IMG/VR virus record: IMGVR_UViG_2778261463_000008
Coordinates: 1 to 8,853 of that record
Origin: a virus
Lineage: Duplodnaviria; Heunggongvirae; Uroviricota; Caudoviricetes
Reading direction: 5' to 3' (one strand)
DNA: 8,853 nt
A program made the position numbers and the translations under genes. The first letter of the stretch is position 1, and the number at the start of each line of letters is the position of its first letter. Positions 2,908-8,853 of the stretch are shown here, piece after piece. The notes below the pieces were generated by a model. That model had not been told where the DNA came from, did no database searches, and saw only the letters and a list, made by a program, of their open reading frames with translations.

Positions 2908-3444
2908 ATGTCAAATGTGAGCGGGATCGGTGATGCTTATTACTGGAGTGTTTTTAAAATCGCTGAGGCCTTTGGGCTTCACCGGGACACAGTAAAAAAA
3001 CGGCTCCTCGCGGCCAACACTCCTGTGGCTGCGACTGTCAGGGGGAACCCCGTTTACGCCCTGCAGCATGTCGGGCCAGCCCTGTTTAGTGTGAAGCATG
3101 AGGCAGCAGACTCTGTTCATGATCCATCCCGTATGGAGCCGAAAGAGAGAAAGGACTGGTACCAGTCTGAAAATGAAAGGATCAAGCTGGAAAAGGAGCA
3201 GCGAAAACTCATCCCCGTTGATGAAGTAGTCATCGTCTATTCGTCCATGAGAAAGGCTGTCGTCCAGGTTCTGGAGACAATTCCGGATGTTCTTGAACGC
3301 GATTGCGCCCTGACTCCTCAGGCCGTCGGCGTTGTACAGCAGGCCATTGATGACCTGCGATACACTCTTCAGGAAAAATCCTACGAGGCTTGTGCTGCTG
3401 AATTAATTCCTGATGAGGAAGGAGAGAGTCTCCAGGAGGAATAA
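2908..3444 (+). CDS. Terminase small subunit (lambda Nu1-like)
   Basis: Immediately downstream of cos and upstream of the large subunit; its stop TAA is directly followed by the large-subunit ATG. N-terminal helix-turn-helix-like region, acidic C-terminus. GGAG 7 nt upstream of ATG 2908. The ATG at 2878 listed in the track has no ribosome-binding site. Confidence 0.8.
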   Translation: MSNVSGIGDAYYWSVFKIAEAFGLHRDTVKKRLLAANTPVAATVRGNPVYALQHVGPALFSVKHEAADSVHDPSRMEPKERKDWYQSENERIKLEKEQRKLIPVDEVVIVYSSMRKAVVQVLETIPDVLERDCALTPQAVGVVQQAIDDLRYTLQEKSYEACAAELIPDEEGESLQEE

Positions 3445-5543
3445 TGGGTTTTTCATCAGCGCGAAATTTGGGAAGGGACATATCGGCAGGATTTTCCCCA
3501 CCACGTCGCATGCCGATTTCGGAGGCTGTTAAAAAATTCATGCGTGTTCCCAAGGGGGCTGGTAACTCGGTGCCATGGGATCCTGAACTGACACCCTACA
3601 TCATTGAGCCCATGAACTGCCTGGCATCGCGTGAATACGATGCGGTGATTTTTGTTGGTCCTGCGCGAACAGGGAAGACCATTGGTCTGATCGATGGATG
3701 GATTGTCTATACCATCGTTTGCGATCCTTCGGACATGCTCGTTGTGCAGATGACCGAAGATAAGGCCCGCGAGCATTCTAAAAAGCGCCTCGACAGAACG
3801 TTCAGAAGCAGTGCGGCGGTAAAGAAAAGAATGAGTCCACGTCGTAACGACAATAATGTCCATGATAAGACGTTCAGGGATGGCTCGTTCCTTAAAATTG
3901 GTTGGCCCTCGGTCAACATTATGTCGTCGTCGGATTACCGGTTTGTCGCCTTAACCGATTACGACCGTTTTCCGGAGAATATCGACAGCGAGGGTGATGG
4001 TTTCTCCCTGGCCTCAAAACGTACCACCACATTTATGTCCGCCGGGATGACTCTGGTGGAGAGCTCGCCGGGACGTGACATCTGCGACAGCAAATGGCGA
4101 CGTAAGTCGCCTCATGAAGCGCCACCGACGACTGGTATTCTTTCCCTTTACAATCGTGGTGACCGCCGCCGCTGGTACTGGCCATGTCCGCACTGCGGTG
4201 AATATTTTCAGCCAGCCATGGATGCCATGACCGGCTACCGTAATGAACCGGATCCCTTTAAAGCCAGTGAGGCGACGTATCTACTTTGCCCGCACTGCAG
4301 CGGCATTATCACTGCGGAGAAAAAGCGTGAGCTCAATAGTGCAGGAGTCTGGTTACGTGAAGGTCAGGTCATTGATCGTAACGGCAACGTTTCCGGTGAA
4401 CCGCGCCGCTCCCGTATCGCCAGTTTCTGGATGGAAGGGCCAGCTGCTGCGTATGAGACCTGGGCGCAACTGGTTTACAAATTACTGACTGCAGAACAGG
4501 AGTATGAAGCGACAGGAAGCGAAGAAACACTCAGGGCGGTTATCAACACCGACTGGGGATTGCCTTATCTTCCCCGCGCCAGCATGGAGCAACGAAAAAG
4601 TGAACTGCTTGAGCAGCGGGCAGAGCCAGTTCCTTCACGCAGTGTGCCGGATGGCGTTAATTTCCTTGTGGCGACAGTGGATGTGCAGGCGGGACGTCAT
4701 CGCCGTTTTGTGGTTCAGGTAACGGGCTATGGCAGTCGTGGCGAACGCTGGATTATTGATCGTTACAACATCACGCAGTCATTGCGCGGTGACAGCGACG
4801 GGGAGAGCCAGCGAATTGATCCGGCCAGCTATCCGGAAGACTGGGATGTCCTGCTGACGGATGTTTTTCATAAAAGCTGGCCGCTGGCCTCCGATCCTTC
4901 TCAACAAATGCGACTGATGGCAATGGCGGTGGACTCCGGCGGTGAAGACGGGGTCACTGATAATGCCTATAAATTCTGGCGTCGTTGCCGTCGTGATGGA
5001 CTTGGTAAAAGTATTTACCTGTTTAAGGGCGACAGCATCCGGCGAGCAAAACTGATCACCCGTACATTCCCTGATAACACCGGACGAACGGGCCGACGGG
5101 CGCAGGCCGCAGGTGATGTGCCACTCTGGCTTCTTCAGACGGATGCCCTGAAAGACCGGGTTAATAATGCGTTATGGCGTGATTCACCGGGTCCCGGCTA
5201 TGTGCATTTTCCTGACTGGCTGGGGAGCTGGTTTTACGACGAACTGACGTATGAAGAGCGGAGCAGTGACGGAAAGTGGAGCAAACCAGGGCGGGGGGCT
5301 AACGAAGCCTTTGACCTGATGGTGTATGCCGAGGCTCTGGTCATTCTGCATGGTTACGAGAAAATTCAGTGGCCGGATGCGCCGGAATGGGCATGCAGGG
5401 AAACCTGGCTGGAGTGCGTCAGTGATAACACTGAGCAACCTGTTCTGCCGGAGCCAGTGCTCCAGCCGGACAGAAAAAAGAAACGAAAAAAAACGGTACC
5501 CGATGAGGAAAATCCCTGGGTGACTTCCGGAGGATGGTTATGA
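3444..5543 (+). CDS. Terminase large subunit (lambda gpA family)
   Basis: 699 aa. Walker A motif VGPARTGKT (nt 3657-3680). Two CPHC motifs (WPCPHCGEYF and LCPHCSG) as in lambda gpA. AGGAGG ribosome-binding site 4-5 nt upstream. Lys-rich C-terminus. Confidence 0.92.
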   Translation: MGFSSARNLGRDISAGFSPPRRMPISEAVKKFMRVPKGAGNSVPWDPELTPYIIEPMNCLASREYDAVIFVGPARTGKTIGLIDGWIVYTIVCDPSDMLVVQMTEDKAREHSKKRLDRTFRSSAAVKKRMSPRRNDNNVHDKTFRDGSFLKIGWPSVNIMSSSDYRFVALTDYDRFPENIDSEGDGFSLASKRTTTFMSAGMTLVESSPGRDICDSKWRRKSPHEAPPTTGILSLYNRGDRRRWYWPCPHCGEYFQPAMDAMTGYRNEPDPFKASEATYLLCPHCSGIITAEKKRELNSAGVWLREGQVIDRNGNVSGEPRRSRIASFWMEGPAAAYETWAQLVYKLLTAEQEYEATGSEETLRAVINTDWGLPYLPRASMEQRKSELLEQRAEPVPSRSVPDGVNFLVATVDVQAGRHRRFVVQVTGYGSRGERWIIDRYNITQSLRGDSDGESQRIDPASYPEDWDVLLTDVFHKSWPLASDPSQQMRLMAMAVDSGGEDGVTDNAYKFWRRCRRDGLGKSIYLFKGDSIRRAKLITRTFPDNTGRTGRRAQAAGDVPLWLLQTDALKDRVNNALWRDSPGPGYVHFPDWLGSWFYDELTYEERSSDGKWSKPGRGANEAFDLMVYAEALVILHGYEKIQWPDAPEWACRETWLECVSDNTEQPVLPEPVLQPDRKKKRKKTVPDEENPWVTSGGWL

Positions 5544-5752
5544 ACCAGAATGATATTGAAGCCATGATCCAGCGTTATATCGATGCGGAAATGGCAGTTC
5601 TGGACGGAAAATCCGTCACTTTTAATGGTCAGCAGATGACCATGGAAAATCTGTCCGAGATCCGACGGGGGCGTCAGGAGTGGGAGCGGCGTCTTGCTGC
5701 CATGACTGCGCGGCGACGGGGGGATCCGGGATATAAACTGGCGAGGTTCTGA
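5540..5752 (+). CDS. Head-tail joining protein (lambda gpW-like), 70 aa
   Basis: Small ORF between terminase and portal. ATG overlaps the terminase stop (ATGA), with GGAGG 6 nt upstream. Its stop overlaps the portal ATG (TGATG). Size and position match lambda gpW. The ATG at 5534 is an alternative start. Confidence 0.75.
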   Translation: MNQNDIEAMIQRYIDAEMAVLDGKSVTFNGQQMTMENLSEIRRGRQEWERRLAAMTARRRGDPGYKLARF

Positions 5753-6657
5753 TGGCAATTCTGGATGATGTGATTGGTGCTTTTTCACCAGGCTGGAAAG
5801 CTGCGAGGTTGCGGTCAAGAGCATTAATTCAGGCCTATGAGGCAGTGAAACCTACCCGCACACACAAAGCCCGACGGGAAAACCGTTCTGCCGACCAGCT
5901 CAGTAAGTACGGGGCGGTATCCCTGCGGGAGCAGGCCCGTTTTCTGGATATCAATCATGACCTTGTCATCGGTGCTTTCGACAAGCTTGAGGAGCGGGTG
6001 ATTGGCGCAAAAGGGATCATTGTTGAACCCCAGCCATTACTGAAAAACGGTGATATGGCTACAGACCTGGCAATGATTATCCGTCGTTTGTGGGCGGAAT
6101 GGTCTGTCAGCCCGGATGTGACCGGGCAGCATACGCGCCCCATGCTCGAGCGTTTGTTGCTGCGTACCTGGTTACGTGATGGTGAAGTGTTTGCCCAGAT
6201 GGTCAGTGGTGCAGGGGCCGGACTGGTGCGGACTGCCGGCGTGCCTTTCTGGCTCGAGGCAATGGAGCCGGATTTTGTACCCATGTTCAGTGATGAGTCT
6301 GCGGGAATGAATCAGGGGGTTTTTCTGGATGAGTGGGGCAGGCCGAAAAAATACCTGGTTTATAAAAATTATCCGGTCACCGGGCGACAGAGTGATACCA
6401 AAGAGATCGCCGCTGAAAATATGGTGCATCTGAAGTTTACCCGCCGGCTGCATCAGACGCGTGGCACATCCATGTTGTCAGGTGTGCTGATGCGGATCAG
6501 CGCGCTTAAGGAATATGAAGATTCCGAGCTGACAGCGGCGCGCATTGCTGCAGCACTGGGGCTGTATATCCGTAAAGGAGACGGGCAGGATTATGAGGCC
6601 CCCGTTCTTCCCATTCTCCTGACAGTTACCGAGTCCATACGGGAACACACAGACTGA
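5752..6657 (+). CDS. Portal protein (lambda gpB family), N-terminal fragment, disrupted at ~6613
   Basis: Aligns with recalled lambda gpB through a shared ...QTRG... block up to ...EAPVLP (residue 287, nt 6612). The last 14 codons (ILLTVTESIREHTD) and the stop are non-homologous read-through into the junction. The portal C-terminal half is found on the opposite strand at ~8200-8807. Confidence 0.85.
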   Translation: MAILDDVIGAFSPGWKAARLRSRALIQAYEAVKPTRTHKARRENRSADQLSKYGAVSLREQARFLDINHDLVIGAFDKLEERVIGAKGIIVEPQPLLKNGDMATDLAMIIRRLWAEWSVSPDVTGQHTRPMLERLLLRTWLRDGEVFAQMVSGAGAGLVRTAGVPFWLEAMEPDFVPMFSDESAGMNQGVFLDEWGRPKKYLVYKNYPVTGRQSDTKEIAAENMVHLKFTRRLHQTRGTSMLSGVLMRISALKEYEDSELTAARIAAALGLYIRKGDGQDYEAPVLPILLTVTESIREHTD

Positions 6658-6667
6658 AAGGGGGGCA

Positions 6668-7138
6668 TCATGAACCACCCCGATCGCCTTTTTCGCCCTT
6701 CGGCCCCTGAGGTCCTGCCGGGCCACGCTCACCTGTATCACCCTTTGGCCCCTGAGGTCCCGGCTCTCCCTTTTCTCCTCTCGGGCCCGTGTCCCCCTTT
6801 TCTCCCCTGGCACCACCAAAGTTAATCCTGACAGCGACGACATCACTCCCGGTACCAGCCTCTTCCCAGACAACCCCGACCAGCGGATCAGAGCCGCTGT
6901 TAGTCAGCTGAACTTTTCCGGACTTCAGATAAACCTTCTTACCCGTTTTCATATCATCCGTTTTCAGCTTAGGCAGCATAAACACACCTTCGGTCATGCC
7001 GTCGCCTGTTTCACCCTGTGGAATATCGGTCAGCGCCACCGCAAAAACATCACCCACCTGCACCAGATCTCCGCTGCTGATGGCTGCACTGGCAACAATC
7101 GCCACCGTTTTTCCTTCTTCTACAAAATTCTTTGCCAT
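6668..7138 (-). CDS. Head decoration-like protein (DUF2190 family) with C-terminal collagen-like Gly-X-Y repeat tail, 156 aa
   Basis: ATG at 7138 with GGAGA 7 nt upstream. N-terminal ~110 aa ([30 protein letters not shown]...[15 protein letters not shown]) matches the DUF2190 pattern. The C-terminal ~45 aa is uninterrupted G-X-Y ([43 protein letters not shown]). Confidence 0.8.
6696..6760. repeat. Direct repeat of a 45-bp unit inside the collagen-like coding region
   Basis: CCCTTCGGCCCCTGAGGTCC (6696-6715) and CCCTTTGGCCCCTGAGGTCC (6741-6760) are 19/20 identical and 45 bp apart, which is five G-X-Y triplets. Confidence 0.7.
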
Positions 7139-7185
7139 AACTGTCTCCACACAGCCCCGTTCAGGGGCTGATTTCAGGTACAAAA

Positions 7186-7204
7186 AAAGCCCTTACGGGC
7201 CATC
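7186..7204 (-). terminator. Weak Rho-independent terminator or attenuator after the 521-aa ORF
   Basis: On the minus strand: GGCCC-GTAA-GGGCT (5-bp stem including one G-U pair) followed by TTTTTTTG. It sits between the stop of 7225..8790 and the start of the decoration gene. A second 7-bp hairpin (CAGCCCC-GTTCA-GGGGCTG, 7152-7170) has no T tract. Confidence 0.3.
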
Positions 7205-7224
7205 AGAGTTGTTGTCTGCGATGT

Positions 7225-8790
7225 TTACGCCGTACATTTCACCAGACCGCGGTGATCAACTGGCGCGACACCGGCGTCAATACGCACTTTCGTTGTCACG
7301 CCATCCACACTGAACCCCTCCATCTGATCAATATATGGCGTATCCACACCGTTGAGATAAGCCACTTCAATCGTATCGGAGCCTTTTGACGCAGCCAGGT
7401 AGAAGGTGGTCTGGCTGTTATCATCAAGACGAGGCTCTGCAATAACGGTCGCAAAATCTTTCACCGGGTTAATAATACCGGCGTTAATGTCAGCCCCCTT
7501 GACACTTGAGGAGCGAATGACCTGGTTAGCAACAGACTCCATCGCCGTCGGTACCAGTACGAACGCAGGACGAATATTCAGATGACGCTCCCCCTCTTTC
7601 TGAACGCGCATCAACTGGCGGGCTTTATCCAGCGATGCCACGTCCATTGCAGCGCTCTCCAGTACGTTTGCATGTTTCGCTTTATCGAACAGACTTACAT
7701 TATCTGTGGAGATTTTCGGGTTAGACGTCAGAATGGCATAAACCAGATCGGCAATAGTGGATTTCGCCGCACGGCCCAGTTTCATCGGGACATCGGTCAG
7801 CATATTCAGATCATCATTGATAATGGCCTGACGGGTGATACTGAACAGCTCGCCATAGGTCGCCAGTGCAATAGTGGCCTGTTTATCTCCGGTGGTGATG
7901 TATTTATATTCCGCCCCTTCACGCACCTGACGCAGAGCACTGAAGCCCCCCATACCCACACGATGAGCAATTTTAAAATCAGACAACTGACCTTTCCGCG
8001 TCCACTGTTCATAGGTTTCAGGGGCATCTTCCCAGCCCTGCAGAATGGCTTTGTTCGCAACATCCAGCAGAATATTACCGAAGTCAGACGTACTGTGTGT
8101 GAACGCCGCACCGACCATCTGCATCGGGTTATAACCGGAAACCCCAATACCCCGTTCAGTCAGTGACATACGGGCATATTCACGCAGGGTCATCCCGTTG
8201 TAGACATTATCACGTTCGGTTTTTTCAAATCCGGCACGCGCCATCAGCGCCTGGCGGATCCCGTCCCCCACAAAATTACCGTTACGACCACCTGCACGTA
8301 CCCAGTCTGATTCTGTCGCCGCTCCACCACGAATCTGAATTTTCCAGGCTTCAGCTTCCTTGACAGGATCAATCCACGGCATGACCGGACCAGAATAGGT
8401 TGCGTTATATAGTGTTTTCATATCCACATCCGACGTAATTTTCAGCAATCCCGCGGCCACAACCATATTCAGCCATGCCCGGTACACCGGACGGGTTACA
8501 GCACCAATAAAACAGTCCTGCAGGATCAGATAACCATCTGTGGACTCAACCAGCTCCTGTCGCTGGGCACTGTAGGTACCGTTATAATTACGTGCTGCAC
8601 TGGAAAAACTCAGACGTGTGCCCGCCGCCACGGCCCGCAACTGACCATTACGAAAAGTTTCCAGGTTAGTGTTAGGCCGATCAGATTTGACCATGCCGAT
8701 ATCTTCCCCCTTACGCAGATCGTCATAAATAATTCCGGGTGTGATATGCAGTTCCCGATCATTATCTTTATTCGTCACGGCAAGGTGCAC
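7225..8790 (-). CDS. Portal protein C-terminal half fused in frame to a ~320-aa head-morphogenesis domain (protease/scaffold or capsid-like); 521 aa
   Basis: Residues ~1-190 align with the recalled C-terminal region of lambda gpB, with consistent spacing across several blocks (FRNGQLRAVAAGTRLSFSSAARNY, WIDPVKEAEAWKIQIRGGAATE, IRQALMARAG). No stop codon and no internal ribosome-binding site before the downstream ~320 aa. The annotated start is a GTG directly after an in-frame TAA at 8806-8808; there is no ATG until codon 33, so this is an internal gene fragment, not a native start. Confidence 0.75.
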   Translation of the reverse strand: MHLAVTNKDNDRELHITPGIIYDDLRKGEDIGMVKSDRPNTNLETFRNGQLRAVAAGTRLSFSSAARNYNGTYSAQRQELVESTDGYLILQDCFIGAVTRPVYRAWLNMVVAAGLLKITSDVDMKTLYNATYSGPVMPWIDPVKEAEAWKIQIRGGAATESDWVRAGGRNGNFVGDGIRQALMARAGFEKTERDNVYNGMTLREYARMSLTERGIGVSGYNPMQMVGAAFTHSTSDFGNILLDVANKAILQGWEDAPETYEQWTRKGQLSDFKIAHRVGMGGFSALRQVREGAEYKYITTGDKQATIALATYGELFSITRQAIINDDLNMLTDVPMKLGRAAKSTIADLVYAILTSNPKISTDNVSLFDKAKHANVLESAAMDVASLDKARQLMRVQKEGERHLNIRPAFVLVPTAMESVANQVIRSSSVKGADINAGIINPVKDFATVIAEPRLDDNSQTTFYLAASKGSDTIEVAYLNGVDTPYIDQMEGFSVDGVTTKVRIDAGVAPVDHRGLVKCTA

Positions 8791-8853
8791 CTTACTCCGG
8801 CTCAGTTATCCATGCTTCTTGAAGGTATCAACTGGAAGCACCCGAAACGAACG

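Follow-up and report, generated by a model that had tools for sequence, protein, structure and literature searches.

An inverted head-gene block and a split portal gene in a defective lambdoid prophage of Escherichia coli

The rearrangement described here is real, inherited and inactivating, and it belongs to ordinary prophage decay. We analyzed a stretch of 8,853 nucleotides (the window), which is the entire draft contig NNVD01000101.1 of E. coli GCA_002485525.1 and covers a lambdoid prophage from its lysis region to its head region. The window very probably carries a scar that illegitimate (microhomology-mediated) recombination left in one lineage and that is fixed there. The prophage is defective: the portal gene is split, the prohead protease domain is deleted and a head-tail gene is truncated. 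This rearranged state is passed on vertically. Given that there is neither an intact portal nor a protease, and that the genes for the capsid and the cement protein are antisense relative to the late operon, the prophage is predicted to be unable to make heads. A preliminary description had proposed the precise inversion of a head-gene block of about 2.2 kb that splits the portal gene. The inversion and the split stood, but the precision did not, since an internal deletion of about 1.07 kb lies at 8282-8285.

Gene order and the three junctions

On the plus strand, TerS is encoded upstream of the portal gene, and TerL (3444-5543) and a gpW-like gene (5540-5752) are also found there. The N-terminal part of the portal (native aa 1-285) occupies 5752..6605 of the plus strand and matches positions 3-252 of the PF05136 profile. 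The open reading frame does not stop there but takes in 16 foreign codons and ends at 6657, so that its product has 301 aa. Native aa 286-450 of the portal lie inverted on the minus strand at 8286..8780, where they match PF05136 positions 273-354. The Pfam profile search thus divided a single family match between a plus-strand and a minus-strand ORF, in agreement with the earlier placement of the N-terminal part on the plus strand and the C-terminal part on the minus strand. We compared the portal with that of the E. coli GF4 prophage (NZ_CP172217.1, at dusA); the identity was 99.97 % up to 6605 and 99.8 % in the inverted part. Re-joined at the correct breaks, the two parts equal the GF4 portal at 100 % over aa 1-450, and the native join reads ...EAPV followed directly by TNKDNDREL. 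The portal break is single, at nt 850-854 of the gene, with zero portal bases lost, and the C-terminal 51 aa of the portal are deleted. The identification as a lambda-family portal holds, as evidenced by two halves that match complementary parts of PF05136 and re-join contiguously.

Two further head genes are reversed. A cement/decoration protein (DUF2190/Phage_cement_2) with a collagen-like G-X-Y C-terminal tail is encoded at 6668..7183 of the minus strand (PF09956, E = 9e-21; PF01391). The gene for a fusion of a ClpP-like prohead protease with the major capsid protein is represented at 7225..8285, minus strand, by its capsid half only (about aa 323-675; PF25209, E = 3e-54), which shows 99.5 % identity to strain Ch1; the protease half is absent. 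In intact relatives, the head genes (TerS to cement, capsid and portal) are all co-linear, and our search of phage records returned co-linear relatives only. The ancestral order, which the preliminary description had proposed to establish from related prophages, is accordingly the co-linear one. A tRNA scan of longer sister contigs found none.

The inverted block measures about 2.18 kb. By comparison with the 99.8-99.97 % identical GF4 prophage, its breaks lie at 6601-6605 and 8776-8780, and the tetranucleotide CCGT/ACGG occurs at both portal breaks. At the left junction, J1 (6602..6605), the ends of the alignments to portal nt 851-854 and to a reversed Gifsy-2-family gene overlap by the 4 nt CCGT. 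Across J1, portal codon 285 is followed by the opening ~66-70 nt of this head-tail gene in reverse; the truncated start of the gene lies at 6606..6671 on the minus strand (ATG at 6671-6669) and matches GF4 and Ch1 at 100 % and 99.9 %. The gene is annotated as a 'DNA breaking-rejoining protein' and was assigned to the Gifsy-2 family (PF13856) via a relative, L016. J1 was found unchanged in contigs L005-L014.

At the right junction, J2 (8777..8780), a 4-nt ACGG overlap lies where the reversed portal meets tnpB of an IS66-family (ISCro1-like) element, at a point inside that gene. The tnpB sequence (PF05717) extends over 8777..8853 of the plus strand as a 77-nt repeat tail at the contig end. This segment is 100 % identical to at least 1,889 records, under tnpB, at about 970 nt inside the element. 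Since the second junction enters an insertion sequence, more than a plain inversion with two breakpoints is involved. The third junction, Jdel (8282..8285), has a GTAA overlap on the minus strand. It removes about 1.07 kb, comprising portal aa 451-501 and the protease half, and fuses portal codon 450 in frame with the capsid half of the protease/capsid gene.

The three junctions were mapped exactly by comparison with GF4, Ch1 and a copy of ISCro1, and the overlap is 4 nt at 3/3 of them (CCGT, ACGG and GTAA). The chance of an overlap of at least 4 nt is ~0.016 per random join and ~4e-6 for all three. Each junction thus has the short overlap (~1-9 nt) without extended homology that defines a microhomology scar. 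ACGG/CCGT is common to the portal, the head-tail gene and IS66 at the break.

These positions revise several details given earlier. The breakpoints had been placed at 6613 and 8807; reverse-complementing 6614-8807 in silico yields an ORF of 814 aa, which is a fusion of portal and capsid with 13 foreign residues in it. The supposedly restored join 'LPKLSRSKVHLAV' spans 39 nt of non-portal DNA that is in frame by chance. The AGGAG motif and the ATG at 8812 had been taken for a translation start, but this ATG is an internal methionine of TnpB, and MLLEGINWKHPKRT is TnpB sequence (PF05717). The sequence 'CAGGAGAA', assigned to the second junction, is located within the Gifsy-2-family gene. The argument that inversion makes both junctions sensible is lost, as the right one enters the interior of an IS66-family tnpB. 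The proposed TTCTTCC/TTCTCC microhomology lies entirely within one partner and gives way to the three overlaps above. We note as a caution that, at misplaced breakpoints, chance can produce both a 'restored' ORF that stays in frame and a motif resembling a Shine-Dalgarno site.

Recurrence of the junctions and origin of the rearrangement

We found J1, Jdel and J2 in identical form in 19 independently assembled contigs (NCBI and Logan assemblies), for which about 30 samples are listed. The contig versions that carry them differ by up to 21 substitutions. Each of these contigs ends in the IS66 repeat, with tails of 127, 77 and 30 nt that correspond to assemblies with k = 127, 77 and 31, and a TerL-based look-up returned only contigs likewise stopping at IS66. 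The block has one orientation in 19/19 contigs, and no unitig at k = 31 branches at J1. P0139, encoded in a 5.3-Mb NCBI genome, carries J2 and Jdel. Sub-lineages decay further, as evidenced by an additional 672-bp deletion and by an additional junction at 7223.

We searched 5,426 complete E. coli genomes for each of J1, J2 and Jdel, and 0 had any of them, even singly. An inversion of 2.18 kb combined with the 1.07-kb in-frame fusion of portal and capsid and with a tnpB-interior junction is therefore unseen in these 5,426 genomes. Exact-pattern scans gave 0 hits for J2 and Jdel in the GTDB representative genomes and for J2 in the JGI metagenomes. The 801-aa fusion expected of an intermediate with the deletion but without the inversion had no match by exact look-up in a collection of 15 billion proteins. 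The missing intermediates and missing lone junctions fit a single complex event, without proving it.

The preliminary description had left three options: a fixed inactivating rearrangement of a cryptic prophage, a switchable segment and an assembly error. Given the recurrent identical junctions, the variety of k-mers, the sequence divergence and the co-linear intact relatives, the first of these is supported. In the process that we propose, at least three double-strand ends (in the portal, the head-tail gene and a downstream IS66 copy) would have been resected and then re-joined. Joining may have proceeded through the RecBCD/ligase-dependent alternative end joining of E. coli or through replicative template switching, to judge from the anatomy of the junctions; the one hint of the pathway is the Chi or Chi-like octamer beside Jdel. 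The outcome would be that the 2.18-kb block was flipped and that the DNA separating the head-tail gene from the interior of IS66 was lost. Microhomology-dependent illegitimate recombination and end joining are documented in E. coli (PMC3375238; bioRxiv 10.1101/605246).

The same product may instead have arisen by successive events. A two-break inversion between the portal and the head-tail gene could have been followed by an ACGG-to-ACGG deletion into the downstream IS66, or a deletion that brought the head-tail gene up to the interior of IS66 could have come first and the inversion second, with Jdel as a separate deletion before or after. Taken jointly, we consider these orders possible but rather unlikely. 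Since ACGG/CCGT is shared by all three partners, a second microhomology deletion would be traceless, and P0139 indicates that the lineage is still rearranging. Against this, the later break must have hit the earlier junction exactly, and no intermediate was seen among the 15 billion proteins or the 5,426 complete genomes.

An inversion driven by the IS66 transposase through intramolecular transposition is improbable. An IS66-family element is indeed one partner at J2, and we observed ISCro1 insertions in the portal and protease genes of related prophages. However, J2 falls deep in the element (about 970 nt in), within tnpB and away from the terminal inverted repeat, J1 is without any IS sequence, and the 8-bp target-site duplication is absent, there being the 4-nt overlap only.

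It is more improbable still that the junctions are chimeras made by an assembler or by reads. In favour of such a chimera, the window, a short draft contig, breaks off 77 nt after entering a repeat, and its junctions occur in 0/5,426 complete genomes. Yet the three junctions recur unchanged under differing k-mers (31, 77 and 127) and assemblers, the 4-nt overlaps are too short for a de Bruijn graph mis-join, and versions up to 21 SNPs apart must come from independent isolates. An assembly artefact is effectively refuted.

We dismiss as the least probable reading a programmed invertible segment (a Gin/Pin/Cin-type or tyrosine-recombinase switch) frozen in one orientation: a Pin-type invertase does occur near the tail-fibre genes of related Rac-like prophages, but the inverted-repeat search found no pair at ~6600/~8780 (the best pairs were at chance level and elsewhere), the genes called on the contig gave no Resolvase or Phage_integrase Pfam family, the junctions fall within essential ORFs and within an insertion sequence, a single orientation runs throughout the contigs with k = 31 unitigs crossing J1 directly, and re-inversion would still yield a dead portal-capsid fusion, so that portal and protease are defective either way.

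The microhomology-mediated scar in the window represents one more route of prophage death and has little wider importance. Its three unique junctions can serve as a lineage marker for a group of E. coli isolates.

Recurrent portal breakpoints beside a Chi-like octamer

A by-product of the analysis, a hot spot of portal breakpoints beside a Chi or Chi-like octamer, may outweigh the finding on the window itself. The portal endpoint of Jdel falls in this recurrent hot spot. At least 10 independent chimeric junctions in Rac-like/lambdoid E. coli prophages stop the portal at one of just two positions, ...GACTGGGTA(C)^ or ...GGTCGTAA^, which are 17 nt apart and have an octamer GC(T/A)GGTGG between them. 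The right-hand partners of these junctions vary, and include capsid, tape measure (three times), J, Lom, tail fibres and others. In the window, the Chi-like octamer GCAGGTGG is found at 8288..8295 on the minus strand, directly 5' of the deletion endpoint in the phage orientation. In strain Ch1, the octamer is the canonical Chi, GCTGGTGG; the alleles named in our analysis are GCTGGTGG, GCAGGTGG and GCCAGTGG. The octamer is oriented to be readable by RecBCD coming from the downstream late genes, and in Ch1 there is no second Chi so oriented for at least 8.7 kb downstream. RecBCD cuts 4-6 nt 3' of Chi, and the 3' breakpoint cluster matches this cut position.

Tentatively, positions 8282-8285 of the window could be an instance of this portal hot spot, in which Chi-arrested RecBCD fixes one end and microhomology picks the variable partner; we hold this to be somewhat doubtful. 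The literature that we found gives GCAGGTGG the status of a candidate motif only as regards an active Chi variant, and so the Chi explanation stays hypothetical. If it is true, Chi sites would dictate where prophages get truncated. If the hot spot holds in a systematic survey, prophage decay could record RecBCD/Chi-guided end processing and joining in wild E. coli.

Comparison with known systems

The closest comparison is the GF4 prophage, whose DNA is 99.6-99.97 % identical to the window and which also has an inverted head-tail block. Its portal breakpoint, with the microhomology AATCC, lies 5 nt or less from the deletion endpoint of the window. GF4 differs in that its inverted block is another and larger one (from the 3' end of the capsid gene through the 5' half of the tape-measure gene) with deletions on both sides, and in that its portal is uninterrupted across the J1/J2 site, unlike that of the window. 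A common rearranged ancestor of the window and GF4, reached via deletions only, was considered but not adopted, as the portal segment would have had to undergo an inverted duplication and the coincidence of breakpoints would still lack an explanation.

More broadly, the window resembles the defective lambdoid prophages of E. coli (Rac-, Qin- and DLP12-like, and the defective pool of O157), in which late genes are likewise eroded by deletions, insertion sequences and rearrangements. In these cryptic prophages, as here, essential head genes are dead while their neighbours persist and are inherited vertically. Many such decayed variants exist among the related loci.

The G segment of Mu (Gin), the C segment of P1 (Cin) and the P segment of e14 (Pin) are similar in that a segment of phage structural genes is inverted. 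Such systems depend on inverted recombination sites of ~26-34 bp, on a neighbouring serine invertase and on both orientations being functional, and this contig has none of the three.

Inversions and adjacent deletions mediated by insertion sequences share with the window an IS partner (IS66-family), but here the break is inside the element and the other junction is IS-free. The alternative end joining of E. coli, which Chayot et al. reportedly described in 2010 as involving RecBCD resection and LigA, is like the present case in its microhomologies of 2-5 nt without long homology and in the loss of flanking DNA. Those events were obtained in the laboratory and were mostly simple deletions, whereas the window holds a natural multi-junction product that includes an inversion.

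Inversion of the head-gene block and the true portal breakpoints

The draft contig NNVD01000101.1 (E. coli assembly GCA_002485525.1, locus L006) is identical to the window over all 8,853 nt. The genes run from a holin (49-264) and a DUF1327 gene through lysozyme (1086-1619), an Rz-like lysis gene, the DUF1441 small terminase, the large terminase (3444-5543) and a gpW-like gene (5540-5752) to a lambda-family portal gene starting at 5752. Position 1 of the cdtI and Tritos phage records is the exact start of their alignment to the window, at 2713. The cos (cohesive-end) site of such phages is probably at about 2712/2713, inside the non-coding gap (2223-2878) upstream of the small terminase gene.

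In the intact relatives (E. coli Ch1, DS26-1 and 16843; metagenomic contig L016; phages cdtI, Tritos and mEp460), one strand carries the portal, a ClpP-like prohead protease/major capsid fusion, a DUF2190 cement protein, a small Gifsy-2-family head-tail gene (annotated as 'DNA breaking-rejoining protein') and the tail genes, in that order. In the window, the ~2.2 kb past the plus-strand N-terminal part of the portal carry the cement protein (6668-7183), the capsid (7225 upward) and the C-terminal part of the portal on the minus strand. The portal is thus split by an inverted head-gene block, as the preliminary description had claimed. The Pfam profile PF05136 is divided between the plus-strand ORF (profile positions 3-252) and the minus-strand ORF (273-354), and re-inverting the block in silico made the window co-linear with Ch1 and L016. 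About 16 G-X-Y repeats (PF01391) form a collagen-like tail at the C-terminus of the cement/decoration protein (PF09956). In most relatives this protein is 107 aa long and tail-less, and the Ch1 and GF4 copies are pseudogenes per PGAP.

Strain GF4 (NZ_CP172217.1) carries the closest relative of the window, a prophage linked to dusA (99.6-99.97 % identity). Aligned to GF4, the portal N-terminal part reaches window position 6605 and the C-terminal part runs inverted from 8780 down to 8282; in GF4 both ends adjoin and share 4 nt (CCGT/ACGG; portal nt 851-854). When 6605 was joined to 8776 in reverse complement, aa 1-450 of the resulting protein were 100 % identical to the portal of GF4, reading ...GQDYEAPV before the breakpoint and TNKDNDRELHITPG after it. 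The inversion had been described as precise, with two cleanly restored junctions. This does not hold, because the right junction enters an IS66-family element and the proposed join of 6613 to 8807 adds 39 foreign nt, of which 8 belong to the reversed head-tail gene and 31 to the insertion sequence. The 'LPKLSRSKVHLAV' read there is spurious, encoded by those 39 nt and in frame by chance.

Three junctions and the IS66 element

At the left junction (J1, 6602-6605), the window enters the Gifsy-2-family gene, whose initial ~66-70 nt (ATG 6671-6669) it carries in reverse complement from 6602 on, 100 % identical to GF4 and 99 % to Ch1. The portal and the reversed head-tail gene overlap by CCGT. The supposed Shine-Dalgarno 'CAGGAGAA' is internal to this gene (...VTVRRM...).

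A plain inversion is expected to place the reversed portal next to nt 71 onward of the head-tail gene, but the right junction (J2, 8777-8780) differs. Window 8777-8853 matched at 100 % an IS66-family element in about 2,000 records, chromosomes and plasmids alike. The match maps to tnpB, starts about 970 nt into an ISCro1-like copy and is directed toward the transposase gene; 'MLLEGINWKHPKRT' is accordingly TnpB sequence (PF05717). The overlap between the reversed portal and the tnpB interior is ACGG. Since J2 continues into tnpB, re-inversion does not restore the second junction. The IS66 repeat at contig ends is exactly 77, 127 or 30 nt long (window; L005, L007-L011). A k-mer of 77 is common in assemblers, and de Bruijn assemblers behave in this way on entering a repeat; this contig, like all the others, therefore stops at the same point in IS66 because of the k-mer limit inside the repeat. 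Contigs of 50-200 kb with the same terminase likewise end at the IS. Complete ISCro1-like IS66 copies were found in the portal and S49 protease genes of other lambdoid prophages (strain 16843, L015 11657-14341; strain E2865, L003 3022-5722). This element lands often in the head genes of this lambdoid phage group.

At the deletion junction (Jdel, 8282-8285), the portal (...GCAGGTGGTCGTAA) is followed immediately by mid-gene sequence of the protease/capsid fusion (CGGTAATTTTGTGG...), with a GTAA overlap. Relative to Ch1, 16843 and L016, about 1.07 kb is gone, comprising portal aa 451-501 together with the protease (ClpP) half of the fusion. The in-frame fusion creates a 521-aa ORF with both PF05136 and PF25209. 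Even a perfectly re-inverted prophage would therefore be without a complete portal and protease.

Origin and inheritance of the rearrangement

The overlap is exactly 4 nt at all three junctions; the computed chance of at least 4 nt is 0.016 at a random join and about 4e-6 for all three. There is a single portal cut with both sides retained and no loss, which points to a reciprocal break rather than two unrelated deletions. As the distal partner at J2 is the interior of the IS and not the remainder of the head-tail gene, a re-joining of three or more ends is the simplest history. Chayot et al. reportedly described, in 2010, end joining in E. coli that depends on end resection. Microhomology-dependent illegitimate recombination and resection-dependent end joining occur in E. 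coli (PMC3375238; bioRxiv 10.1101/605246). We infer that ends in the portal, the head-tail gene and a downstream IS66 would have been re-joined by microhomology, flipping the 2.18-kb block, with loss of the DNA that had separated the head-tail gene from the IS66 interior. Jdel may belong to this event or to a separate one.

A stepwise route through successive events is possible, given that ACGG is common to all three partners, although a later break must then fall exactly on an earlier junction. Intermediates were not found, and the 801-aa 'deletion only' fusion was not among 15 billion proteins. Inversion by the transposase is unlikely and failed its defining tests, as J2 lies away from the IS termini and J1 is free of IS sequence. 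The 'switchable segment' suggested earlier is excluded: no inverted-repeat pair was found in the window at the two block boundaries, no gene of the contig matched a recombinase family, the contigs show one orientation only, and either orientation is non-functional. Nor are the junctions the 'assembly error' once considered, which is excluded by their identity across 19 contigs from independent NCBI and Logan assemblies and by 4-nt overlaps being unable to produce graph mis-joins.

The exact 301-aa truncated portal was present on these 19 contigs, for which about 30 samples are listed; they derive from three NCBI assemblies and, for the rest, from many SRA runs assembled in Logan. J1, Jdel and J2 were byte-identical in every contig reaching them, and the versions differed by up to 21 substitutions outside the junctions. 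The rearrangement is real and inherited. Some sub-lineages that share J1 show further decay: L012/L020 carry an additional 672-bp deletion (window 6854 to 7527), fusing the capsid to the cement collagen tail (P0137), and L013/L019 have a new junction or contig break at window 7223. Protein P0139 (230 aa), on a 5.3-Mb NCBI contig, begins at J2 (MHLAVTNK...), crosses Jdel and diverges beyond ...TERGIGV (window ~8150), so a related sub-lineage is represented by a closed genome. All three junctions were absent from 5,426 complete RefSeq E. coli genomes, and exact-pattern scans of GTDB representative genomes (J2 and Jdel) and JGI metagenomes (J2) gave no match, indicating that the rearrangement is lineage-specific.

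A portal breakpoint hot spot and cryptic-prophage erosion

The 99.9 % identical prophage of GF4 has a larger, different inversion, which brings the tape-measure gene, in reversed orientation, up against the portal. The inverted block (L004, NZ_CP172217.1, 8572-13628) covers about 5 kb, from the 3' end of the capsid gene up to and including the 5' half of the tape-measure gene, and is flanked by a deletion on each side. The 460-aa truncated portal is on 21 contigs. The GF4 portal breakpoint (after ...GGTCGTAATCC) lies within 5 nt or less of Jdel (after ...GGTCGTAA).

We collected portal homologues of odd length by protein search and compared their DNA. These chimeras are co-linear deletions in Rac-like/lambdoid prophages with varied right-hand partners. 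In five proteins the portal part ends at ...GACTGGGTA(C)^ (^, breakpoint): P0013, P0016 (partner J), P0017 (tail fibre), P0020 (tape-measure C-terminus) and P0058 (Lom). The endpoint ...GGTCGTAA^ is shared by P0010 (tail fibre), P0011 (tape-measure C-terminus), GF4 (reversed tape measure) and the window (capsid). At least nine independent chimeric junctions thus end at one of these two points (window 8282-8305, minus strand; L004 13594-13640; portal 3' ends of L021-L028), with microhomologies of 2-5 nt; the only other endpoints, within the roughly 110-codon range detectable by protein search, were aa 397, 419 and 438. The portal contains a hot spot at which breakpoints recur. Several prophages with such portal deletions (L021, L025, L028) are Rac-like, with tail fibre, Tfa, Pin-type invertase and YnaE/YnaM neighbours; they keep TerS, TerL, gpW and portal aa 1-438/450, and all head and tail-shaft genes are gone.

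The two endpoints flank GC(T/A)GGTGG, which in Ch1 has the canonical Chi sequence GCTGGTGG. The orientation of this octamer suits recognition by RecBCD arriving from downstream, and in Ch1 no other top-strand Chi follows the portal within at least 8.7 kb. RecBCD cuts 4-6 nt 3' of Chi (PMC5041463), and the CGTAA^ endpoint cluster agrees with this distance. We hypothesize that breakage here may be Chi-guided, but all four junctions that keep the octamer carry GCAGGTGG, for which no Chi activity was documented in the literature searched.

The hot spot beside Chi is the sole element that might repay systematic study; the finding itself is otherwise of low interest. As in other cryptic lambdoid prophages, erosion here involved illegitimate recombination, an IS and the loss of head functions, and the rearrangement in the window is a fresh instance of this known process.
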